Below, piece after piece: positions 3,646-54,926 of a stretch of DNA of 64,000 nucleotides. The stretch lies in sequence record LR597658, one strand, 5' to 3'. Positions within the stretch are counted from its first letter, which is position 1; each line of letters starts with the position of its first letter. The notes under the pieces were generated by a model that was given only the letters and a program-made list of their open reading frames with translations, made no database searches and had not been told where the DNA came from. The stretch comes from Escherichia phage VpaE1_ev108. The position numbers were made by a program, and so were the translations under genes.

Positions 3646-4194
3646 ATGAAGAAATTGATTCTAGGTTTGTGCTTAATGTTTACAGCACACTTATCTTATG
3701 CAGTTGACTGCCCAGAGCTATCAATTAGCCAAAAAGTGAACATGTTAAAAGCTTACCAGTATGGCGAGAATAACATGGGTAAAGGTTGGGGTATCACTCT
3801 AGCAGCTATAGCCTTACAAGAGTCAGAGTTAGGTCTGAAGGTAGAAAATAAAAAGACACATGATTATGGTATTTTCCAGAATCACTTGAAGACTGTTGTA
3901 AAGCGTAACAAAATTAGCCCTAATGTGGCTAAAAAGAAACTCTTAAGAGACTTTGATTATGCTGCGAAGGAAACTCACAAAGAGCTTGAGTTTTGGACAA
4001 AGGTGCATGGTCAGCCAAAGTCAAAGAAGACTTTACAAAAAGTTTTAGCATCATATAATGCTGGGTATTCGTACAGAATCCCTAAAGCTAAGAAGTATTC
4101 TCAAGATGTCTATAACAACATGAAAGTAATTGCTCAATGTGAATTTGCAACAAACATTTCTAAGGTAAATCATGAAAAAATTAAGAAAGTCTGA
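3646..4194 (+). CDS. secreted lytic transglycosylase-like protein (SLT motifs)
   Basis: signal-peptide-like N-terminus MKKLILGLCLMFTAHLSYA; SLT family-1 motifs ESELG, YGIFQ, SYNAGYS. Confidence 0.5.
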   Translation: MKKLILGLCLMFTAHLSYAVDCPELSISQKVNMLKAYQYGENNMGKGWGITLAAIALQESELGLKVENKKTHDYGIFQNHLKTVVKRNKISPNVAKKKLLRDFDYAAKETHKELEFWTKVHGQPKSKKTLQKVLASYNAGYSYRIPKAKKYSQDVYNNMKVIAQCEFATNISKVNHEKIKKV

Positions 4195-5394: not shown

Positions 5395-5742
5395 ATGACA
5401 TTTAAAGAGTTCTGTCAAGCTACTTTCATAATTGTTTTCTTAGTTGGTGCAGGTGTCTGGGGAGGATACTCTTACAGAGACTATCAAGTTGCTGAAACTG
5501 AGCTAAATAATGAGAAACTAATAAGTGTTGCTAAAGATGCTTATCAGGAAGGTTTAGCCACACTCAGCACCAATTACAAAAATGATTTGAAAGACGTGCT
5601 TGCTAAGAATAAGCACACAAAAGAGGTACTAACATATGAAAAGACTAAGCCAGAGTTTTATAATGTTTGTGTTACTGATAATTATGTCAGGGTGTTCAAC
5701 GAACAAAGTGAACAGTACATTCAAAAACTCCCAAGTAAGTGA
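5395..5742 (+). CDS. membrane protein with N-terminal TM helix (i-spanin-like architecture?)
   Basis: hydrophobic segment FIIVFLVGAGVWGG then charged helical region; GGAGA SD upstream. Confidence 0.45.
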   Translation: MTFKEFCQATFIIVFLVGAGVWGGYSYRDYQVAETELNNEKLISVAKDAYQEGLATLSTNYKNDLKDVLAKNKHTKEVLTYEKTKPEFYNVCVTDNYVRVFNEQSEQYIQKLPSK

Positions 5743-18139: not shown

Positions 18140-18643
18140 CTATAATTGTAGGTTGCATTCTTTACTTACCTCTTCAAGTTTAATCTCCGAGTCCTTAAGT
18201 CGTTTCTTATGAACTCTGAATCTCATTAGTGCGATGATGATACCAACTAAAGGGACAGCATACAAGTACCAAACATCATATACCTTTGCAGTAATCTGTG
18301 TAATGGTTAAGTCTTGAGCTATGGAACTGATTGCTGATACTGCCAGTAATGTTGCTAGGAAAAATGCCAGTACCATTACCGTACTTAAACAACCTCTGGC
18401 ATGGTGTTCATGCTTAATGCACTTATTCTTTTCGTCAACAACCCTGTTGTAGTCATTTGTAAAGTCTCTGTAGAAAGCTTTCAAGTATTCTTGAGTGTAG
18501 CCTTCAAAGCAACCTGTACCATACCAATAATCACCACCAAAGTGTGCTATGATACCGGTATCCCCATTTGGTTTGGTTACTCTCAAAGAGGTGTGATGAC
18601 GAGTATCTTGATAGTCTATTTTGTATCTTTCTTCATAAATCAT
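18140..18643 (-). CDS. hypothetical membrane protein
   Basis: start at ATG 18643 (ATGA overlap with upstream stop, GAGGGA SD); hydrophobic segment VMVLAFFLATLLAVSAISSIA. Confidence 0.5.
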   Translation of the reverse strand: MIYEERYKIDYQDTRHHTSLRVTKPNGDTGIIAHFGGDYWYGTGCFEGYTQEYLKAFYRDFTNDYNRVVDEKNKCIKHEHHARGCLSTVMVLAFFLATLLAVSAISSIAQDLTITQITAKVYDVWYLYAVPLVGIIIALMRFRVHKKRLKDSEIKLEEVSKECNLQL

Positions 18644-18873
18644 TTTCCAATCCCTCTCAATCGTTTGTTCCACTCAAGGTCAACAAGTCTTTGCAGGACT
18701 TTCCCTCTAGGTGTTACACCTTTTAAATCTGCATCGTAGCAACGGTAAAAGTCACCTTCAGCGTGTTTACCATAGCATTTTCTGATATTCTGACTTCTAC
18801 GATATTGTTCTAATAGGGACAGCTTGTAGTAATCTTCAACTGTAGTTAGTTTTTTCATTCTTTCACCACGCAT
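18640..18873 (-). CDS. hypothetical small protein
   Basis: 77 aa ORF. Confidence 0.45.
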   Translation of the reverse strand: MRGERMKKLTTVEDYYKLSLLEQYRRSQNIRKCYGKHAEGDFYRCYDADLKGVTPRGKVLQRLVDLEWNKRLRGIGK

Positions 18874-21003: not shown

Positions 21004-21468
21004 TTATTTTGGATATACACTGTCAAGATAAATGTCAGCTTCCATTCTACGTCTGTTTTTCAGGCCGTTTGAAGTGACCTTCTTACCTTTTACTGTGACC
21101 TTGTTCCACCACTGCATAGCTTCTGCACAACCGACCTTATTACCAGCATTGTGGCGCTTGATAAATGTAGAGTCCTGCATAGCTGTGATACCAATGTTGT
21201 ATGTTTCACTTACAAGTGCATCAAACTCATTCTGAGAAGTTGGAACCTTGATGGCTTTGTTCACTGCTGCAACGAACTTTTCAACATCTGCAAGAAGATA
21301 CTGTTCAGCTTGTTCAGCGGTAATCTTCATACCCATCTTAACAGGCTTCCCACCAATACGAATTGTCCCATACCCAATTGTGGGGATTCCAGCAGAATCT
21401 TCGTAAGCCTCAAGCTTAAGACCTTCAAAGAACTTAATAGCTTCTAAACCTTTTCTTGAGAGTTGCAT
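21004..21468 (-). CDS. endolysin, T4-type lysozyme (GH24)
   Basis: LEAIKFFEGLKLEAYEDSAGIPTIGYGT matches the catalytic Glu/Asp/Thr region of T4 lysozyme-family proteins. Confidence 0.8.
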   Translation of the reverse strand: MQLSRKGLEAIKFFEGLKLEAYEDSAGIPTIGYGTIRIGGKPVKMGMKITAEQAEQYLLADVEKFVAAVNKAIKVPTSQNEFDALVSETYNIGITAMQDSTFIKRHNAGNKVGCAEAMQWWNKVTVKGKKVTSNGLKNRRRMEADIYLDSVYPK

Positions 21469-24430: not shown

Positions 24431-25846
24431 ATGAGCGAATTATTTAAACATGCGCACCTTCATGCAGGTCGAACTGAAAATGGTGCTATAAACCATACTT
24501 CATCAATGTCTGCTCTTGTAGACTTTTACAAAGCTGCGGGTTCTAGCCGTAGCAATGTAGAAATCTTACCAGACCTGTTCTACAAAGCTTTGCGTGAGGA
24601 TGTTGATGTTGCAGTTCGTATTTTGCTTCATATGCGAGATGTACGAGAGGGTATGGGTGAGCGTAAAGCTTTCCGAACCGTTTTGCTTCAAGCAATTGAA
24701 GATAAAGTTTTAGAGCCTACACAGGTTCTTCGCATTATGGATAAGATTGCAGAACTTGGTCGTTTTGATGACTTCAAAATCTTCGTAGGTACTCGTTTCG
24801 AGACAGATGCCTTCAAACATTTAGAAGCAGCATTACTAGACCCTGCAACAGCAGGTTTGGCAGCTAAGTGGTTACCACGAGTAAAACCACGTCATAAGCA
24901 GTTTGTAAAACGTTTCTGCAAGTTTGCCAACTTGAGTGAGAAAGAGTACCGCACACTGTTGTCTGCACTATCTGATACAGTTGAGCAAAAAATCTCTGCT
25001 AATGAGTTTGGTAAGATTGACTACAGTAAGATTCCTTCTCTTGCTGCTGCACGTTACCAAAAGCTGTTTAACCGTAAAGATGGAGAGCGTTACAAAGCTT
25101 ACATCGAGTCCTTATCAAAAGGTGAGACTAAGATTAACGCTGGTGCTGTTTACCCATACGATGTGATTAAATCTGTTAAGTATGGTAATGCAGATGTTGC
25201 TAATGAGCAGTGGAAAGCACTACCAAACTGGATGGCAGAAGGTGAAAACATCTTGTGTATGTCTGATGTATCAAGTTCAATGTCTTGGGTGAATTTTGGC
25301 TCCATTACTGCTCTGGATATTGGTGTATCACTTGCCTTGTATGTAGCAGAACGCAATACAGGTTGCTTTAAGAATGAGTTAATGGTTTATTCAACAAACC
25401 CTCACTTCATCGAACTGAGTGGTGATTTACGAAACCGTCATCGTCAGGTGATGCGACACGTTGAATATGGCTCAACTAACTTACAAGCAGCTTTTGACCG
25501 CATTCTTGAAACAGGTAAAAGAAACAACTTGACTCAGAAAGATATGCCAAGTAAGCTTATCATCTTCTCCGATATGGAGTTCAATCAGGTTGATGGAGCT
25601 AACGGTCGTACAAACTTTGAAGCAATTCAGAGTAAGTACAAAAAAGCTGGATATGAGATGCCACAACTGGTATTCTGGTACTTAGCAAACCGTAATGGTA
25701 CTTGCGAAGTATCTGTTAAGGATAACGGTGTAGCAATGGTATCAGGGTTCTCTCCAGCCACTTTAAAAGCTCTGCTTGGTGGTGAGAAGTTTGACCCAAT
25801 CAGCGTAATGCTCAAAGCAGTAATGATTGACCGTTATATCTGGTAA
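24431..25846 (+). CDS. Ro60/TROVE-like protein with C-terminal vWA domain (MIDAS motif)
   Basis: GENILCMSDVSSSMSW (DxSxS MIDAS, cf. Ro60 ..DVSASM as recalled), GSTNLQAAF, LIIFSDMEFN vWA motifs; ~270 aa helical N-terminal region; GAGAG SD. Confidence 0.6.
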   Translation: MSELFKHAHLHAGRTENGAINHTSSMSALVDFYKAAGSSRSNVEILPDLFYKALREDVDVAVRILLHMRDVREGMGERKAFRTVLLQAIEDKVLEPTQVLRIMDKIAELGRFDDFKIFVGTRFETDAFKHLEAALLDPATAGLAAKWLPRVKPRHKQFVKRFCKFANLSEKEYRTLLSALSDTVEQKISANEFGKIDYSKIPSLAAARYQKLFNRKDGERYKAYIESLSKGETKINAGAVYPYDVIKSVKYGNADVANEQWKALPNWMAEGENILCMSDVSSSMSWVNFGSITALDIGVSLALYVAERNTGCFKNELMVYSTNPHFIELSGDLRNRHRQVMRHVEYGSTNLQAAFDRILETGKRNNLTQKDMPSKLIIFSDMEFNQVDGANGRTNFEAIQSKYKKAGYEMPQLVFWYLANRNGTCEVSVKDNGVAMVSGFSPATLKALLGGEKFDPISVMLKAVMIDRYIW

Positions 25847-26011: not shown

Positions 26012-26088
26012 CTCTGTTTAGCTCAGCTTGGTAGAGCGTTCCGTTTGGGGCGGTAAGGCCGGAGGTTCAAGTCCTCCAACAGAGACCA
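26012..26088 (+). tRNA. tRNA-Pro (anticodon UGG)
   Basis: acceptor CTCTGTT/AACAGAG, T-arm GGAGG-TTCAAGT-CCTCC, loop ttTGGgg, encoded CCA. Confidence 0.6.
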
Positions 26089-26095
26089 AATTAAT

Positions 26096-26173
26096 GTTCC
26101 AGTAGACAAAATGGTAAAGTCACCACTCTTTCAAAGTGGATATCTGAGGGTTCAAATCCCTTCTGGAACGCCA
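26096..26173 (+). tRNA. tRNA-Glu (anticodon UUC)
   Basis: acceptor GTTCCAG/CTGGAAC, T-loop TTCAAAT, anticodon stem CCACT/AGTGG, loop ctTTCaa, CCA. Confidence 0.65.
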
Positions 26174-26178
26174 GTTTT

Positions 26179-26256
26179 GACAGAAGACCAATTACAGCAA
26201 ACTTAATCTTATTCATCTGAAGGTAAATCGGACAAAGAAGAGATTTGGTCTGGTCA
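26179..26256 (+). repeat. E1: conserved bulged-stem element (CAGAAGACCAA ... TTGGTCTGG)
   Basis: 5' block CAGAAGACCAATTACAGCAA and 3' block TTGGTCTGG form a 7 bp helix enclosing ~52 nt. Confidence 0.5.
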
Positions 26257-26264
26257 TTAAGAAT

Positions 26265-26341
26265 TGCGGGTATAGAGAAAGGGCGTCTCACATGTCTCAT
26301 TAGCATGGTATCGGCAGGTTCGACTCCTGCACCCGCCTCCA
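26265..26341 (+). tRNA. tRNA with CAU anticodon (Met, fMet or Ile-lysidine type)
   Basis: T-arm GCAGG-TTCGACT-CCTGC, acceptor with mismatch at pair 1-72, loop ctCATta, CCA. Confidence 0.5.
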
Positions 26342-26345
26342 AATT

Positions 26346-26415
26346 TACAGAAGACCGTTTACAGCAATATTTATTAAATTTTTAGCGGAAAAAATTGAAA
26401 GATACGGTCTGGTAA
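26346..26415 (+). repeat. E2: conserved bulged-stem element (CAGAAGACCGT ... ACGGTCTGG)
   Basis: same flanks as E1 with compensatory AA/TT to GT/AC change in the helix. Confidence 0.5.
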
Positions 26416-26425
26416 TACTAAACAT

Positions 26426-26502
26426 GGTTAGGAAGCACATAAGGTATGTGCGGTCGCCTGTTAAGCGAATGGCACAGGGTTCGAATCCCTGACTAACCGC
26501 CA
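26426..26502 (+). tRNA. tRNA-Asn (anticodon GUU)
   Basis: T-arm CAGGG-TTCGAAT-CCCTG, loop ctGTTaa, CCA. Confidence 0.65.
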
Positions 26503-26571
26503 AATTTAGGAGAGAAGCGATTGCTCACCGATTTGTAAGGTGCAAGTCCTTAGCCTGAATAGAAATTAAAT

Positions 26572-26659
26572 GTGTCGTTATCCCGTAGATGGTAGCGGTG
26601 GGGACTGTAAATCCCTTGTCATTGAGACTCGGTAGGTTCGACTCCTACACGGCACACCA
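26572..26659 (+). tRNA. tRNA-Tyr (anticodon GUA), long variable arm
   Basis: 88 nt; acceptor GTGTCGT/ACGGCAC, anticodon stem GGGGA/TCCCT, loop ctGTAaa, T-loop TTCGACT, CCA. Confidence 0.65.
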
Positions 26660-26664
26660 ATAAA

Positions 26665-26742
26665 GGTTATGTAGTTTAATTTGGTTAAAATACTCCCCTG
26701 TCACGGGAGATGATGAGGGTTCAAATCCCTTCGTAACCGCCA
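26665..26742 (+). tRNA. tRNA-Asp (anticodon GUC)
   Basis: anticodon stem CTCCC/GGGAG, loop ctGTCac, T-loop TTCAAAT, CCA. Confidence 0.7.
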
Positions 26743-26801
26743 ATTTTGAGAGGGCTATTTAGCCCCTCCCTTAAAGGGTTCTTACGAGTATTCTTTAAAG
26801 G

Positions 26802-26880
26802 AGCAGAAGACCAAATTCAGCAAGTTACTTAAAATTTCAAGCCAATTTAATTTTGAAAAATTTAAAACTTGGTCTGGCTC
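26802..26880 (+). repeat. E3: conserved bulged-stem element (CAGAAGACCAA ... TTGGTCTGG)
   Basis: same conserved flanks, ~54 nt AT-rich insert. Confidence 0.5.
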
Positions 26881-26888
26881 AACAAATT

Positions 26889-27024
26889 TACAGAAGACCG
26901 TTTACAGCAAAACTTAACAATCTATTTCTCCGGTAAAGAAAAGGCGAAGGTTCGATTCCTTCACTCGGCAGATGTCGAGTTGGTGTAATGGTAGTACTTA
27001 AGATGATAAACAACGGTCTGGTAA
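26889..27024 (+). ncRNA. E4: candidate structured RNA, bulged stem enclosing a tRNA-like T-arm (Y-RNA-like?)
   Basis: CAGAAGACCGT ... ACGGTCTGG helix; interior has perfect T-arm GAAGG-TTCGATT-CCTTC, a second hairpin ACTCG..CGAGT and D-loop-like AGTTGGTGTAATGGTAG, but no acceptor stem. Confidence 0.35.
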
Positions 27025-27170
27025 TTATCTTTGTAGATAAGTTATTAAGCTTACCTGTGAGTATGCGACCACAAAGGGTGAAAGGGTAAATTCTAGATTT
27101 AAACCCAAAAAGGCACATCGCTACAGACCTTAAGCAAGTCTGGGTAGCTTATCTACAAAGATAATTTAAT

Positions 27171-27246
27171 GGAAGTGTAGCAGAATGGTGATGCGGCAGA
27201 CTTTTAATCTGACAGGCGATGGGTTCGAATCCCTCCACTTCTACCA
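27171..27246 (+). tRNA. tRNA-Lys (anticodon UUU)
   Basis: acceptor GGAAGTG/CACTTCT, loop ctTTTaa, T-loop TTCGAAT, CCA. Confidence 0.6.
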
Positions 27247-27250
27247 ATAT

Positions 27251-27327
27251 GGTTCAGTCGCAGATAAGGTAATGCAAGGGTCTCATAAGCCCTATGAATG
27301 TGGGTTCGATTCCCATCTGAACCTCCA
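27251..27327 (+). tRNA. tRNA-Met (anticodon CAU; GGG/CCC anticodon stem)
   Basis: acceptor GGTTCAG/CTGAACC, loop ctCATaa, T-arm GTGGG-TTCGATT-CCCAT, CCA. Confidence 0.65.
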
Positions 27328-27328
27328 A

Positions 27329-27404
27329 GCTGGTATAGTTAAGAAGGTTATAACACTCCCCTGATAAGGGAACATCGGTGGTTCGATTCCACCTACCAGT
27401 ACCA
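27329..27404 (+). tRNA. tRNA-Ile (anticodon GAU)
   Basis: loop ctGATaa, T-arm GGTGG-TTCGATT-CCACC, CCA. Confidence 0.65.
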
Positions 27405-27411
27405 ATTTCAA

Positions 27412-27450
27412 TAAAGTTGTTGACATTGAGATGTGACTACTTTATAGTAA
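27412..27450 (+). promoter_or_regulatory. sigma70-like promoter internal to tRNA island
   Basis: AAAGTTG-TTGACA - 17 nt - TATAGT. Confidence 0.55.
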
Positions 27451-27651
27451 CCTTAGTTTTCGTTGCGTAGCGTCTATTTTGCAAATTTAAAATAAATGCA
27501 AACGACAATGTTTTTCTGGCAGTAGCTTGATAGGCTAAACACCAGTGAGGTCTTCCAATCCCTCATCAAAGAATTTGGCGTACTCGCCCACGGTATGATT
27601 AATAAGGTGGGCATCTTTAAGGGCTTTCTAAGAGAGTCTTTAAAGATTAAT

Positions 27652-27728
27652 GCACCCTTAGTTCAACTGGACAGAGCAAATGACTTCTAATCATTGAGTT
27701 ACAGGTTCGAATCCTGTAGGGTGTGCCA
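27652..27728 (+). tRNA. tRNA-Arg (anticodon UCU)
   Basis: acceptor GCACCCT/AGGGTGT, anticodon stem AATGA/TCATT, loop ctTCTaa, T-arm ACAGG-TTCGAAT-CCTGT, CCA. Confidence 0.7.
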
Positions 27729-27870
27729 ATTAGTTAGCAGATTACTTAGACGACCTAAGCGGGTCTTCCTGTAGGGAGGTGGTCTGTATCTCATGTTTTC
27801 CAGAACATGTAAATAATCTGAGAAGGGGCTTTACAGTGTTGAGATAATACGGTAAGCTTCGAATTATAGT

Positions 27871-27953
27871 ATGGGACGATGTTAAGACTCTAAGGCATGA
27901 GCAACGGCTTCCAACACCGTTTCAAAGGGGTTCAACTCCTCCGTCCCATGCCA
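27871..27953 (+). tRNA. tRNA-Trp-like (anticodon CCA), atypical 83 nt with enlarged D region
   Basis: perfect acceptor ATGGGAC/GTCCCAT, T-loop TTCAACT, loop ttCCAac, CCA; D-arm cannot be folded canonically. Confidence 0.4.
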
Positions 27954-27966
27954 AAATCTTATTAGG

Positions 27967-28054
27967 GGTAGGTAGCGGCTAATGGTAGCCAAACTGTCTT
28001 GAAAACAGTTGCCACTGTAGAGATACGGTGAGGGTTCGACTCCTTTACTTACCG
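27967..28054 (+). tRNA. tRNA-Ser (anticodon UGA), long variable arm, no encoded CCA
   Basis: 88 nt; anticodon stem ACTGT/ACAGT, loop ctTGAaa, 3-bp D stem, T-loop TTCGACT. Confidence 0.6.
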
Positions 28055-28210
28055 CCTAATAAGATTTAAAGCCAAGCTTCATTCGGATGTTGCTTTGGTA
28101 TCCCGCGTGTATTGTTGTACACACTGATAAAGCACCTAGTAGGTGTCACGGAGAAGAGATAATATCAAGCTCTCCAAAGGTTCTAGTCACCGGATTAAAC
28201 AAGACTATGC

Positions 28211-28233
28211 AAAGACCTTTTTAGGTCTTTTTA
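28211..28233 (+). terminator. hairpin plus T-run inside tRNA island
   Basis: AAGACC-ttttta-GGTCTT followed by TTTTAG; stem uses the same AGACC/GGTCT motif as the E elements. Confidence 0.35.
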
Positions 28234-28311
28234 GAGGGCTTCTAAGGTTATTACAGCTTGTTGTGGAACCTTGTTGCTTAGGTTCTTAGAAGTTCTCTAA
28301 AAAGATTTAAT

Positions 28312-28389
28312 GGGAGATTGACGGTAATTGGTAAACCTATCTCGCTTAGAACGAGATGTTTGAGGGTTCGAATCCCTTGTCTCCTACCA
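28312..28389 (+). tRNA. tRNA with UAG anticodon (Leu by anticodon; class-I length)
   Basis: acceptor GGGAGAT/GTCTCCT, anticodon stem TCTCG/CGAGA, loop ctTAGaa, T-arm GAGGG-TTCGAAT-CCCTT, CCA; short variable arm. Confidence 0.5.
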
Positions 28390-28396
28390 AATTAAT

Positions 28397-28472
28397 GCAG
28401 GTGTAGCAAAATGGTTATGCGGCTGACTCTTAATCAGTAAGACGATGGGTTCAATTCCCTCCACCTGTACCA
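28397..28472 (+). tRNA. tRNA-Lys (anticodon CUU)
   Basis: acceptor GCAGGTG/CACCTGT, loop ctCTTaa, T-loop TTCAATT, CCA. Confidence 0.55.
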
Positions 28473-28477
28473 AAAAT

Positions 28478-28553
28478 GGGGTCATAGTTTATATGGTTAA
28501 AATTCGAGTTTTGCAAACTTGGGAACTGAGTTCAATTCTCAGTGACTCCACCA
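28478..28553 (+). tRNA. tRNA-Ala (anticodon UGC)
   Basis: G3:U70 pair in acceptor stem, loop ttTGCaa, T-arm CTGAG-TTCAATT-CTCAG, CCA. Confidence 0.7.
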
Positions 28554-28559
28554 ATTAGT

Positions 28560-28634
28560 GCATCCATAGTTTAAACGGGAAAATTACAGTCTTCCAAACT
28601 GAGGTTGAGGGTTCGATTCCCTCTGGATGCTCCA
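28560..28634 (+). tRNA. tRNA-Gly (anticodon UCC)
   Basis: perfect acceptor GCATCCA/TGGATGC, loop ctTCCaa, T-loop TTCGATT, CCA. Confidence 0.7.
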
Positions 28635-28641
28635 AATTAAT

Positions 28642-28717
28642 GCTTCTATCGTATAATTGGCTATTACGGTTGCCTTGTAAGTAACTTATCAGGGTTCGAA
28701 TCCTTGTGGGAGCACCA
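28642..28717 (+). tRNA. tRNA-Thr (anticodon UGU)
   Basis: anticodon stem GTTGC/GTAAC, loop ctTGTaa, T-arm CAGGG-TTCGAAT-CCTTG, CCA. Confidence 0.65.
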
Positions 28718-28814
28718 ATTTAGAGGTCAAGTGAAAGACCGCTTTGAGTCAACTGAAGACCGTAACAAATTCCACGGAGTTGAGTTAGCGGCACAACTCC
28801 AGACCTCTTCTCAC

Positions 28815-28889
28815 ACTCGCTTAGTTTATATGGTAAAACACCACCCTTACAAGATGAAGAAAAAGGTTCAAGTCCTTTAGTGAGTACCA
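28815..28889 (+). tRNA. tRNA-Val-like (anticodon UAC), weak anticodon stem, possible pseudo-tRNA
   Basis: acceptor ACTCGCT/AGTGAGT, D-arm GTTT..AAAC, loop ctTACaa, T-arm AAAGG-TTCAAGT-CCTTT, CCA; anticodon stem pairs only 3 of 5. Confidence 0.4.
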
Positions 28890-28890
28890 T

Positions 28891-28968
28891 GTTCCAGTAT
28901 CCCAATTGGCAGAGGATGCAAGCTCAAACCTTGTACTAGTGACGGTTCGAATCCGTCTTGGAACACCA
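28891..28968 (+). tRNA. tRNA with CAA anticodon (Leu by anticodon; class-I length)
   Basis: acceptor GTTCCAG/TTGGAAC, anticodon stem GCAAG/CTTGT, loop ctCAAac, T-arm GACGG-TTCGAAT-CCGTC, CCA. Confidence 0.5.
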
Positions 28969-28973
28969 ATTTT

Positions 28974-29049
28974 GCAGGATTAGTTCAAATGGATAGAGCA
29001 ACAGTCTACGAAGCTGTTAATAGGGGTTCGAATCCCTTATCCTGCGCCA
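28974..29049 (+). tRNA. tRNA-Arg (anticodon ACG)
   Basis: perfect acceptor GCAGGAT/ATCCTGC, D-arm GTTC..GAGC, loop ctACGaa, T-loop TTCGAAT, CCA. Confidence 0.7.
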
Positions 29050-29068
29050 ATTTAAAGAGGCTATTTAG

Positions 29069-29626
29069 ATGAGATATTTGAAGTATGCTTCATGGATTTT
29101 CTTAGCTTTGTTAGAACCATTTGCAGCAATCTTAGCAGTTATCTTAGCACCTTTTGTAGTTCCATTCTACAGTGAGAAGAAAGGACACTTACCTTTCGGG
29201 TTCAGATGGATGGAGACATATGACAACCCAATTGATGGTGATGAAGGTCACGTTAAAAGATGGGCTAATATTAGATGGATTGGTAAACTAGGTGTCTACA
29301 TGCAAAGAGTCGGATGGCTCTGGAGAAACAAAGCTTATAACTTCTCTTACCATGTGTTAGGAAGAGATGTAAAAGATGTTACTAAGTGGAAAGGTAATAT
29401 CAACGTAAGTTCTAACCCTGAAGATAATCAGACAGGTTATCTCCTAATGTGGAACAGTAATGCTTGGGGATTATTCGCTTTTACCCCATCAATTAAAATC
29501 TTTGGTAAACAGTTTTACTGGAGAATTTATATTGGGTGGAAGCTAAAAAGTGTTGTCCCAGAAGAAAGAGCATTCTCAAGGGAAAGAGTTATGTTGGCAT
29601 TCTTTATTCATCCACTAAGAAAGTAA
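29069..29626 (+). CDS. hypothetical Trp-rich membrane protein embedded in tRNA island
   Basis: 185 aa ORF; N-terminal hydrophobic segment WIFLALLEPFAAILAVILAPFVV; AAGAGG SD; TTA/AGA-rich codon usage unlike structural genes. Confidence 0.55.
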   Translation: MRYLKYASWIFLALLEPFAAILAVILAPFVVPFYSEKKGHLPFGFRWMETYDNPIDGDEGHVKRWANIRWIGKLGVYMQRVGWLWRNKAYNFSYHVLGRDVKDVTKWKGNINVSSNPEDNQTGYLLMWNSNAWGLFAFTPSIKIFGKQFYWRIYIGWKLKSVVPEERAFSRERVMLAFFIHPLRK

Positions 29627-29634
29627 AGATTTAA

Positions 29635-29710
29635 AGGGGATTAGTTTACAAGGTTAAAACCTCGGTCTTTGAAATCGAAGAAGTTGGTTCAATTCCAACA
29701 TCCCCCGCCA
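29635..29710 (+). tRNA. tRNA-Gln (anticodon UUG)
   Basis: anticodon stem TCGGT/ATCGA, loop ctTTGaa, T-arm GTTGG-TTCAATT-CCAAC, CCA. Confidence 0.55.
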
Positions 29711-29712
29711 AT

Positions 29713-29791
29713 GCTCCATTACTCCAATTGGCAGAGAGGCCAGACTTAAAATCTGTGTTATGTATCGGTTCGAATCCGATATGGAGTACCA
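29713..29791 (+). tRNA. tRNA with UAA anticodon (Leu by anticodon; class-I length)
   Basis: acceptor GCTCCAT/ATGGAGT, loop ctTAAaa, T-arm ATCGG-TTCGAAT-CCGAT, CCA; variable region about 8 nt. Confidence 0.45.
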
Positions 29792-29796
29792 AATTT

Positions 29797-29872
29797 AGCG
29801 GTATAGCATAACTGGCAATGCAGCAGCCTCTGAAGCTGTCCTATTAAGGTTCAAATCCTTATGCCGCTGCCA
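29797..29872 (+). tRNA. tRNA-Gln (anticodon CUG)
   Basis: anticodon stem GCAGC/GCTGT, loop ctCTGaa, T-arm TAAGG-TTCAAAT-CCTTA, CCA. Confidence 0.6.
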
Positions 29873-29903
29873 CTTCTAAGGATTCTTGCGAGAGTCCTTA
29901 AAT

Positions 29904-29979
29904 GTGGCCTTATCATAAACGGTAATGACCCATGCTGTGAACATGGTCTATACGGGTTCAAATCCCGTAGGTCACCCCA
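29904..29979 (+). tRNA. tRNA-His (anticodon GUG)
   Basis: anticodon stem CCATG/CATGG, loop ctGTGaa, T-arm ACGGG-TTCAAAT-CCCGT, CCA. Confidence 0.65.
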
Positions 29980-29984
29980 ATTTA

Positions 29985-30061
29985 TAGTCCAAGTAGCTTA
30001 TATGGTTAAAGCGCGTGTCTGAAAAACATGAGAAGAGGGTTCAAATCCCACTGGACTACCA
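29985..30061 (+). tRNA. tRNA-Phe (anticodon GAA)
   Basis: perfect acceptor TAGTCCA/TGGACTA, loop ctGAAaa, T-loop TTCAAAT. Confidence 0.6.
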
Positions 30062-30077
30062 ATTTCAAAGGTGCTTA

Positions 30078-30812
30078 ATGAAAGAGATGACAGAACAAGG
30101 TAAGGAGATTTTTAATCTCTTAAAAACCGGTAAAGGGTTCTCTAACCCACTTATTACTGGTGCAGCAGTTCTCGGTGGAACCGTAGCTGCTTCTACATCA
30201 CTTGTAAGCTCTATTAGTTCTGTAACAGACCCTACAATGAAGGAGAAACTTGTTGCTGCTGGACTTACAACAGTCCTTCTAAACAGCTTTACAACAAGCC
30301 TTACAAGCACTACAGCAACTACTAAAACTCTGACAGACTACGGTCAAAAGTCTATTGATGAGTTTTCATCACGTATGCAGGTAGCAAAGGGGTATTCCAA
30401 TGTTATGGGTGCAGCAGGAGAACAAGTTGGTTGTACACCATTCAGTGGTATCATGGGTGTTGCTACAGAGTATGGTCAAAAAGCTATTGACATGATGAAC
30501 AGTACACTAGATAGTGTTAATGGTGTGTTAAGTGACTTGCAAGATGCTATTGATAAGGGTCTTGATACTGTTTCTGATTTAGCTAATCAGGCTGTTAGTA
30601 AGATTAATGAAGGTATTTCAAAGATTACAGCTTATGCAGATGAAGTTGTGCAGATGATTGAAGAAGAAGCTGCCCTTATTGCAGAGTACCTTAAAACGAA
30701 TATCAATGGGTTCTTAGCAGGTATCTTACCAGACTGGTTTGATGATGCCTGTAAAACTGGTGTAATTGACACTATTGCAACACCAGAAATGAAGAGCGCA
30801 TTACAGAAATAA
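30078..30812 (+). CDS. hypothetical Ser/Thr-rich coiled-coil protein
   Basis: start moved to ATG 30078 because ORF-track start 30015 lies inside tRNA-Phe; 244 aa. Confidence 0.5.
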   Translation: MKEMTEQGKEIFNLLKTGKGFSNPLITGAAVLGGTVAASTSLVSSISSVTDPTMKEKLVAAGLTTVLLNSFTTSLTSTTATTKTLTDYGQKSIDEFSSRMQVAKGYSNVMGAAGEQVGCTPFSGIMGVATEYGQKAIDMMNSTLDSVNGVLSDLQDAIDKGLDTVSDLANQAVSKINEGISKITAYADEVVQMIEEEAALIAEYLKTNINGFLAGILPDWFDDACKTGVIDTIATPEMKSALQK

Positions 30813-30813
30813 T

Positions 30814-30906
30814 GGAAGATTAACCCTAAAAGGTAAGGGAGCAGTTTGCTAAACTGCCAGTAGCTGAGAAATCGGTGTACCAGTTCAAGTCTGGTATCTT
30901 CCTCCA
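30814..30906 (+). tRNA. tRNA-Ser (anticodon GCU), long variable arm
   Basis: 93 nt; acceptor GGAAGAT/ATCTTCC, anticodon stem GCAGT/ACTGC, loop ttGCTaa, T-arm ACCAG-TTCAAGT-CTGGT, CCA. Confidence 0.65.
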
Positions 30907-30910
30907 ATTT

Positions 30911-30986
30911 GAATCCGTGACAGAAATGGCTATGTGCCTGTCTGCAAAACAGGTTTATAAGGGTTCGAGTCCCTTCGGATTCTCCA
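30911..30986 (+). tRNA. tRNA-Cys (anticodon GCA)
   Basis: perfect acceptor GAATCCG/CGGATTC, anticodon stem CCTGT/ACAGG, loop ctGCAaa, T-loop TTCGAGT, CCA. Confidence 0.7.
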
Positions 30987-31084: not shown

Positions 31085-31148
31085 CAGAGTTATACTTTAT
31101 AAGAAGGCTTATACAGTATGTCTCTGACGTACATTGTGGTTTCTCCTT

Positions 31149-31172
31149 GACGGTCTCTGTGCCGTCTTTTTT
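31149..31172 (+). terminator. intrinsic terminator
   Basis: GACGG-tctctgtg-CCGTC followed by TTTTTT. Confidence 0.6.
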
Positions 31173-54554: not shown

Positions 54555-54926
54555 ATGAAGTGGCTAGAGGAAGCTTTTAAAAATAATATTGGTGCAATTG
54601 TAGTTGGTATTTTTAGTGTTATTGGGATGTATACCACTATGCAAGTTTCAAGTGGTAAACAAGAAGTGTCTGTCACAACAAAGTTACAGCAGCTAGATAA
54701 TTATTCCAAAAGTAACTATTCAGCTATTCGTGATTTACAGTCTGACATGAGACTGATTCAGCTAGGGATGGAGAACCAGAAAGTTCAGTTAGAGAATGTT
54801 AAGGGTGAAAACGCAAAACTTACCAAAACTCTTGATAAATTCTCTGACAGTGTGAATAATCTGGCTCAATCAGTATCAGCCCTCCAAGCTATTACTGAGA
54901 AGAACACAAAGAATACTGAAAAATAA
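54555..54926 (+). CDS. membrane-anchored coiled-coil protein
   Basis: N-terminal TM segment IGAIVVGIFSVIGMY followed by coiled coil; 123 aa. Confidence 0.45.
   Translation: MKWLEEAFKNNIGAIVVGIFSVIGMYTTMQVSSGKQEVSVTTKLQQLDNYSKSNYSAIRDLQSDMRLIQLGMENQKVQLENVKGENAKLTKTLDKFSDSVNNLAQSVSALQAITEKNTKNTEK

Follow-up and report, generated by a model that had tools for sequence, protein, structure and literature searches.

We examined a 64,000-nucleotide stretch of the genome of Escherichia phage VpaE1_ev108 (sequence record LR597658), hereafter the window, for the nature and possible role of a 185-codon open reading frame (ORF) embedded in a cluster of tRNA genes. The window belongs to a Felixounavirus, a Felix O1-like myovirus. 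Its tRNA-island region (5.4 kb) matched 235 phage records over at least 80% of the length with 90-99% identity, VpaE1_ev78 being the closest. ARAGORN located 26 tRNA genes, all on the plus strand and spanning 26012-30986, and Rfam agreed. As a preliminary description of the window had noted, the ORF lies between two of these tRNAs and carries its own Shine-Dalgarno sequence:

28974-29049, plus strand: tRNA-Arg(ACG), upstream neighbor of the ORF (ARAGORN; Rfam tRNA model, 59.8 bits)
29050..29068, plus strand: 19-nucleotide leader with the Shine-Dalgarno sequence AAGAGG at 29056-29061, 7 nucleotides before the ATG
29069..29626, plus strand: DUF7338-family gene, 185 amino acids, ATG start, TAA stop at 29624-29626 (ORF call, Pfam, PHROG)
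29635-29710, plus strand: tRNA-Gln(UUG), downstream neighbor of the ORF (ARAGORN; Rfam, 56.6 bits)

The spacers are short, 19 nucleotides from tRNA-Arg(ACG) and 8 nucleotides to tRNA-Gln(UUG). Comparative evidence establishes the ORF as a genuine protein-coding gene of a Felixounavirus. No competing ORF of at least 40 amino acids overlaps 29069-29626 in any frame, and an open frame this long has a chance expectation of ~0.02 in the whole window. The homology search proposed in the preliminary description returned full-length matches to the Pfam family DUF7338 (PF24027; E=1.3e-61, 207.9 bits against a cut-off of 27, residues 1-184 on model positions 1-176 of 180) and to PHROG 2143 (phrog_2143; E=2.2e-79, residues 1-185 on profile positions 1-183 of 186). 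DUF7338 was the only Pfam family at E<=1, and NCBIfam and PADLOC gave no match. The product is 100% identical to a coding sequence (CDS) of VpaE1_ev78, and tblastn found homologues in 565 phage records, of which 213 reach 90% identity. Thus, the gene is already catalogued, as DUF7338 / PHROG 2143, a hypothetical protein in hundreds of phage genomes. A profile search of 1.84 billion cluster representatives (clusters at 50% identity) retrieved 878 members, nearly all of them stand-alone proteins of 160-200 amino acids; ten longer members had no informative extra domain, and P0033 is a chimera with a tail-fiber C-terminus. Literature searches for DUF7338, PF24027, phrog_2143 or VOG0370 found nothing, nor did the Felixounavirus RNA-seq and late-gene literature, including a comparative genome paper (PMC8300805), yield anything on this gene.

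The preliminary description named a reading frame not conserved in related phages, along with a lack of translation evidence, as grounds for refutation; the frame gave no such grounds. We found the 185-codon frame intact and free of indels in all 22 Felix-like metagenomic loci from IMG/VR, with a pooled ratio of nonsynonymous to synonymous polymorphism (pN/pS) of 0.09. Intact copies are also present in Bas63 (bas63_0153) and pinkbiff; this genus-level check comprised the 22 loci and these two phages and left out distant Ounavirinae such as Erwinia phages. The conservation of the frame shows a gene that has become fixed in the genus and is strongly constrained by purifying selection. Across lineages, the product is 78% identical to its homologue in Avunavirus Av-05 and 55-62% identical to those of several Straboviridae genera, a distribution that supports horizontal sharing of an accessory gene among phage lineages that are not related. 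A 178-kb contig (L004) of the assembly of Flagellimonas marina, a member of the marine Flavobacteriia, also carries a DUF7338 gene, with 59% identity to that of the window; this contig, of a size expected for a T4-like enterobacterial phage, is most likely phage contamination of the assembly.

The predicted product is basic (isoelectric point, 9.9) and contains 11 tryptophans, 5.9% of its residues, whereas the remaining proteins of the window have 1.05% (binomial P = 5e-6). Hydropathy analysis identified one hydrophobic segment (residues ~6-33, Kyte-Doolittle values up to 2.38). Both the tryptophan richness and the hydrophobic N-terminus reported earlier were therefore confirmed. The conserved features of the protein map to the gene as follows:

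29084..29167, plus strand: single transmembrane (TM) helix, codons 6-33 (hydropathy 2.1-2.4; conserved E/D16, P28 and F29)
29189..29251, plus strand: juxtamembrane motif LPxxFxWMxTxDNxxDGDxGH, codons 41-61 (L41, T50, D52 and G57 invariant in alignment A1)
29315..29344, plus strand: signature W-L-W-R-N-K-A-Y-N-F, codons 83-92, which served as the search pattern for related loci
29531..29542, plus strand: I-G-W-K, codons 155-158, at the end of a beta strand (147-157 in the structural model)

In alignment A1, P28 is invariant and W9 and F29 are nearly so. Over 149 diverse representatives, which extend down to 22% identity, W83, R86, N87 and G156 are invariant and P42, T50, D52, G57, G109, G123, W157 and K158 are at least 90% conserved. 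The charges flanking the TM helix favor an N-in/C-out orientation in 143 of 171 family members and the reverse in 8. An AlphaFold2 model built from a 30-sequence alignment (predicted local distance difference test, pLDDT, 93.5; predicted template-modeling score, pTM, 0.83) comprises a long helix (residues 2-33), five short helices (43-96) and a five-stranded sheet (106-184). The structure search that the preliminary description had also proposed thus started from a confident model and recovered no significant relative among solved structures (no Foldseek match below E = 0.6); the BFVD matches were family members only. A profile search of PDB sequences matched the flavivirus M protein at E=0.62. 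We rejected it as a chance match; the odd 'envelope protein' labels probably stem from it. We predict a bitopic protein of the inner membrane, in which a short cytoplasmic N-terminus carrying positive charge precedes a single conserved TM helix. The modeled ~150-residue domain, basic, tryptophan-rich and alpha/beta, is predicted to face the periplasm and to adopt a fold that has no solved relative. Because the invariant residues (T50, D52, N53, W83, R86, N87, Y90 and G156-W157-K158) begin directly after the helix, they would lie at the membrane surface. A putative ligand site near T-x-D-N-x-x-D-G-D / W-x-W-R-N-x-A-Y would be turned toward the outer surface of the inner membrane.

Spacers of 19 and 8 nucleotides leave no room for a promoter or a terminator, and a consensus scan found neither in them. 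The nearest candidate signals are distant:

27420..27448, plus strand: nearest upstream sigma-70-like promoter candidate, TTGACA-17-TATAGT, 11/12 (consensus scan, pattern match)
30135-30148 and 31116-31132, plus strand: weaker terminator-like matches, the first inside the second ORF of the island (pattern match)
31149..31166, plus strand: strongest terminator-like hairpin and T-run beyond the tRNAs, after tRNA-Cys (pattern match)

Promoter-like matches in the region were no more numerous overall than in shuffled sequences. The 248-nucleotide gap between tRNA-Ile and tRNA-Arg(UCU) (27404-27652, plus strand) contains the best sigma-70-like promoter match of the region as well as sub-threshold matches to Rfam transfer-messenger RNA (tmRNA) models (29 and 16 bits versus a gathering score of 47); these signals are probably due to chance or a tRNA remnant.

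The spacing between the ORF and its flanking tRNAs proved to be a conserved feature of the locus. Of the 24 comparison loci, 15 (among them Bas63) have the leader ATTTAAAGAGGCTATTTAG, or a one-base variant of it, after either tRNA-Arg(acg) or tRNA-Leu(caa), and the other 9 carry an insert of 256-257 nucleotides, with a GAGG of its own, between tRNA-Arg and the ORF. The tRNA-Arg(ACG) gene is cleanly absent from Bas63 and three other loci, which have tRNA-Leu(caa) in its place and the same 19-nucleotide leader. Downstream, the spacer between stop codon and tRNA is 8 nucleotides long in 24 of 24 Felix-like loci, although the flanking tRNAs differ; it is kept even in L043, where the neighbors are tRNA-Asp and tRNA-Ser(tga). 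From the arrangement of the genes, the simplest reading is that the protein genes of the island are co-transcribed with the tRNAs and freed by tRNA processing. The ORF would have no transcription signals of its own and would be transcribed as part of the tRNA array; 3' maturation of tRNA-Arg(ACG) would set the 5' end of the mRNA, and RNase P cleavage at the 5' end of tRNA-Gln, 8 nucleotides after the stop codon, would set its 3' end. The constant 8-nucleotide spacing suggests that the tRNA-processing machinery matures some phage mRNAs. Our search of the literature on phage ORFs inside tRNA clusters returned unrelated papers only.

Codon usage also connects the gene to the island. AGA accounts for 11 of its 12 arginine codons and TTA for 7 of its 16 leucine codons, in line with the preliminary description, and the island indeed encodes tRNAs for them:

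27652-27728, plus strand: tRNA-Arg(UCU), decoding AGA, i.e., 11/12 arginine codons of the ORF (ARAGORN)
29713-29791, plus strand: tRNA-Leu(UAA), decoding TTA/TTG, i.e., 10/16 leucine codons of the ORF (ARAGORN)

The proposed contrast with the structural genes was, however, mistaken. The structural genes are themselves rich in AGA (56% of arginine codons, versus 25% in non-structural genes) and TTA (31% of leucine codons), and the log-likelihood of the ORF under structural-gene codon usage exceeds that of 65 of the 67 other genes. Its guanine-cytosine (GC) content (0.371) is within one standard deviation of that of the window genes (0.386 +/- 0.027). With its structural-like codons and typical GC content, the ORF looks like an extreme late-type gene of the phage rather than foreign DNA, and we infer that its AGA/TTA-rich coding fits the late genes of the phage and the adjacent tRNAs.

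These results bear on the earlier proposal that the gene is a moron-type insertion, which stands only in part. An accessory, horizontally shared membrane gene does reside in the tRNA island. Yet the spacers contain no promoter or terminator, the GC content and codons are typical of the phage, and the gene is not patchy among close relatives, with the frame fixed in 22/22 loci, Bas63 and pinkbiff and 213 GenBank records at least 90% identical. Having failed to find any of these three defining traits, we rejected a recent moron.

Outside the tRNA-island phages, the gene neighborhoods of the family suggested a link to cell lysis. Clustering at 60% identity reduced 288 loci to 65 groups, and we scanned the same-strand neighbors within three genes in 52 of them, all non-redundant (<60% identity) and outside the tRNA-island phages, using three sub-alignments of the family. 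The downstream neighbors included Phage_lysozyme (three matches), GH108 (three), Peptidase_M15_4 (two), GH19 (two), Hydrolase_2, Peptidase_M15_3 and holin_4_1 (two); upstream were Phage_lysozyme (three), a GTA holin and many tail-fiber or chaperone families. Matches to peptidoglycan-hydrolase families totaled 15, and a separate scan of the neighbors of 23 loci gave two matches to Rz-type spanins (Phage_lysis). The DUF7338 gene precedes a holin or TM protein and then an endolysin in six loci (L077, L079, L099, L010, L112 and L014), stands between an endolysin and TM proteins in two (L245 and L252), and in L015 closes a holin, lysozyme, Rz and Rz1 series ahead of the terminase. In the small phages, start and stop codons often abut or overlap (2296 versus 2299 in L010; 6000/6001 in L015), which indicates co-expression in a late operon. 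The partners vary, with GH24, GH108 and M15 endolysins on one side and holin_4_1, GTA_holin_3TM and class II holins on the other, and this variety argues for a generic target and against a specific protein partner.

In large virulent phages, the gene recurs in another setting. Homologues lie between same-strand tRNAs in Felixounavirus, in Avunavirus Av-05 (L044/L100), in the Straboviridae loci L054-L058 and L063, and in the jumbo-phage clusters L116 (tRNA-Thr, ORF, tRNA-Ser) and L190 (tRNA-Ile, ORF, tRNA-Leu and further), whose proteins are at most 37% identical to that of the window. At least five lineages of such phages, in which the protein has diverged to ~30-37% identity, thus carry the gene embedded in a tRNA array. 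The remaining Straboviridae loci that we examined all have it downstream of tRNA genes, at a distance of 70-1000 bp. Between the window and Av-05, the tRNA-Gln genes beside the ORF share 67% identity, inside the range of the other shared tRNAs (58-89%). As the adjacent tRNA is not unusually alike between lineages, simple co-transfer does not explain the linkage, and we regard en-bloc transfer of the ORF with its tRNA as unsupported. No Pfam families were found among the neighbors in the T4-like and Av-05 loci, and our searches found no description of a linkage between DUF7338 and tRNA arrays.

Taken together, the topology, neighborhoods and codon usage suggest an accessory envelope or lysis protein that acts at the periplasmic face of the inner membrane and is expressed from the tRNA-array transcript; the gene would not be a recently acquired moron. 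We advance this reading tentatively, at somewhat less than an even chance. The DUF7338 protein would act in a late envelope or lysis step, the lysis role being drawn from family-wide synteny. Its target would be generic, either the membrane itself or a lipid-linked intermediate of the wall or envelope, and not one holin or endolysin. In the window, the lysis genes are found elsewhere:

21004-21468, minus strand: endolysin, far from the DUF7338 ORF
5395-5742: spanins, matching the position of the separate i-/o-spanin genes annotated in Bas63

Several observations weigh against an envelope or lysis role as proposed. With endolysin and spanins so far from the ORF, the lysis link comes entirely from distant homologues (~30-45% identity). 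The enrichment of lysis cassettes among the neighbors is moderate (P = 9e-4 for a 12% null, 0.08 for a 20% null), tail-fiber or chaperone families are the commonest upstream neighbors, and the slot between tail-fiber and lysis modules is also a classical site for cargo genes; the lysis link is for these reasons a lead and not proof. RNase P punctuation of the mRNA is deduced from spacing alone. The authors of the Felix O1 study assumed early transcription of the tRNAs (PMC3185647). Since the promoter candidates of the island are sigma-70-like as well, the 'late' timing comes from codon usage only. Virion proteomics of Felix O1 did not list the protein (PMC3185647), as expected for a non-structural protein. 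A more ambitious version of the envelope/lysis reading, which we think unlikely, makes DUF7338 a new class of envelope effector with a previously unseen fold. The protein would bind or modify a lipid-linked component to aid lysis, and its mRNA would be excised by RNase P from tRNA arrays and decoded by tRNAs of the same transcript. If true, this mode of expression would explain the recurrent residence of the gene in tRNA arrays of at least five lineages.

The likeliest rival, which follows the reading of the preliminary description, is a moron-like cargo gene that shields the infected cell, by superinfection exclusion or by blocking the receptor or injection in the manner of T4 Imm/Sp, HK97 gp15 or Cor/Llp. 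A membrane protein predicted to face the periplasm would suit this role, as would the patchy distribution over unrelated lineages at the high identities that mark horizontal spread (78% in Av-05, 55-62% in Straboviridae). Its genomic sites fit as well: the gene directly follows tail-fiber or chaperone genes in small phages (DUF4376, Gp53-like_C, Gly_rich_2, Phage_tail_APC), occupies plastic regions in T4-like phages and, in a lambdoid contig, takes the place between Rz/Rz1 and terminase where lambda carries bor. Yet the window gene has no promoter or terminator of its own, has typical GC content and late-gene codons, and is fixed in the genus under purifying selection. In temperate-type contigs, the gene shares the strand of the late operon and its start or stop codons abut or overlap those of its neighbors, a tight packing not suited to expression from a prophage, and in L245 and L252 it sits inside the lysis cassette, between endolysin and TM proteins. 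The absence of similarity to any exclusion or defense family in Pfam, NCBIfam or PADLOC also speaks against such a function. We consider exclusion improbable.

Another possibility is that the protein is the missing holin of the Felixounaviruses, a class III-like protein with one TM helix and a large periplasmic domain. No holin was identified in Felix O1 (PMC3185647) and none is annotated in Bas63, so that these phages, used in the biocontrol of Salmonella and E. coli, are still without an identified holin. The predicted topology resembles that of the T4 holin T, family members occur in lysis cassettes, and homologues in phages HP1, GEC_vB_BS and P54 are labeled 'holin'. These labels are, however, unreferenced annotations. 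No Pfam holin family matched at E<=1, and hhalign gave a probability of 0.3% for the family profile against T (with a T sequence that agrees 100% with the T4 record). The protein moreover coexists with T in AnYang and Lw1, with a class II holin in L015 and with holin_4_1 and GTA_holin_3TM in L079, L080 and L099. Its coexistence with T in Straboviridae and with unrelated holins elsewhere indicates that it is neither a T orthologue, which we rejected on these grounds and the hhalign result, nor the partner of one particular holin. It is also not the only candidate hole-former of the window. Two other proteins could serve: one of 177 residues (18140-18673, minus strand), with a pair of TM segments near its C-terminus, and one of 123 residues (54555-54926, plus strand), encoded right after the tail-fiber gene, with an N-terminal TM segment and a coiled coil. 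Both are without a Pfam match above the curated cut-off. The holin reading is therefore very doubtful, and the 'holin' label is a frequent, correctable annotation error without support. Next to rIIB, we also noted a 182-residue protein (3646..4194, plus strand) with a signal-peptide-like N-terminus and a weak, below cut-off match to SLT (lytic transglycosylase; E=1.2e-3).

Equally doubtful, in our view, is a function tied to the tRNA array itself, such as countering a membrane-associated or externally delivered tRNA-targeting defense or toxin, or linking the expression of tRNAs to some process in the envelope. The residence between same-strand tRNAs in at least five lineages diverged to 30-37% identity, the different flanking tRNAs of L043, and the proximity to tRNAs in the other Straboviridae (70-1000 bp downstream) all favor such a tie, as does the insufficiency of en-bloc transfer, the adjacent tRNA being no more alike between lineages than the others. 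Against it, most of the family shows no such association: once the three tRNA-island phage groups are set aside, no tRNA lies close to the gene in 47 of 52 non-redundant clusters. The gene also lies away from tRNAs in the large phages L065, L070, L075, L132 and L203. Furthermore, it is not obvious how a domain facing the periplasm could reach tRNA. Arrays and accessory genes both gather at module junctions, and the linkage may thus be one of architecture or expression only. Finally, a spurious, untranslated ORF that arose by chance between tRNAs, as might be argued from the lack of direct translation evidence and from the several tRNA-overlapping short ORFs of the island that are clearly artefacts, some of them annotated, has a negligible probability and is effectively refuted by the conservation pattern (expectation of 0.02; 208 bits in Pfam; dN/dS of 0.09 and no indel in 22 loci; 878 cluster-representative matches), the confident AlphaFold model and the good Shine-Dalgarno sequence.

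The rest of the island provides context for these readings. A second protein gene on the plus strand, ending at 30812, encodes a coiled-coil-rich protein (DUF7217 / phrog_2114) with weak matches to tape-measure and ZorA-like profiles. Its listed GTG start (30015) overlaps tRNA-Phe, and the ATG at 30078, annotated as the start in Bas63, is probably the real one. From this ATG, the gene begins 16 nucleotides 3' of tRNA-Phe and stops 1 nucleotide 5' of tRNA-Ser(gct), and is as tightly flanked by tRNAs as the DUF7338 ORF. Directly 5' of the island, a 471-residue ORF (24431..25846, plus strand) matches DUF2828 and DUF7788. The PhageMaP preprint described its Bas63 homologue, gp130, as Ro60-like and a possible counter to a defense system, and its authors suggested that some island 'tRNAs' could be Y-RNA-like partners. 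Short ORFs located between, overlapping or antisense to the tRNAs (26888..27118, minus strand; 27185..27364, plus; 27292..27426, minus; 29646..29792, minus) look like annotation artefacts; GenBank lists the first two as CDS (pinkbiff_41 and pinkbiff_40, respectively).

As an annotation the gene is ordinary. The family nonetheless makes a good experimental target, being widespread, strongly selected, confidently modeled and marked by two sharp signals of context, namely the lysis cassettes of small phages and the tRNA arrays of large virulent phages. What merits experiment is the recurrent residence in tRNA arrays, together with a fold unmatched among solved structures.

Comparisons with known systems help to place the family. 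The window protein is a typical member of DUF7338 / PHROG 2143, with the same length, a single N-terminal TM helix and the WxWRN, TxDN and GWK motifs. It shares with the T4 class III holin T and the antiholin RI a predicted N-in/C-out topology, with one passage through the membrane and a large domain in the periplasm, and its family shares their association with lysis cassettes; it differs from T in having no sequence or profile similarity and no cytoplasmic N-terminal domain. The i-spanin Rz, whose gene belongs to the lysis cassettes of phages of diderm hosts, is likewise anchored in the inner membrane in type II orientation, with its C-terminal domain in the periplasm. However, the DUF7338 domain is predicted to be compact and alpha/beta rather than a coiled coil, there is no embedded or adjacent lipoprotein partner, and separate Rz/Rz1 genes exist besides DUF7338 in this phage type and in L010/L015. 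We rejected an i-spanin because of the short helices and five-stranded sheet of the model, the lack of a Phage_lysis/Rz Pfam match and the separate spanins of Bas63. Lambda bor and HK97 gp15 are classical morons in the sense of Hendrix and colleagues. The DUF7338 gene resembles them as a small accessory membrane gene found at module junctions and spread horizontally, but it has no promoter or terminator, is typical in composition, is not patchy in the genus and is tightly packed on the late-operon strand. The closest parallels to its proposed expression are the thrU-tyrU-glyT-thrT-tufB operon of E. coli, the ORFs of the T4 tRNA region and the 'tRNA punctuation' of mitochondrial transcripts, in which mRNAs are co-transcribed with tRNAs and released by tRNA processing. 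In the window, the likeness lies in the same-strand tRNAs within 8-19 nucleotides of the ORF and the lack of signals between them, from which a similar processing may be supposed. The bacterial cases known to us place the mRNA at the end of a tRNA operon, whereas the window gene stands between tRNAs.

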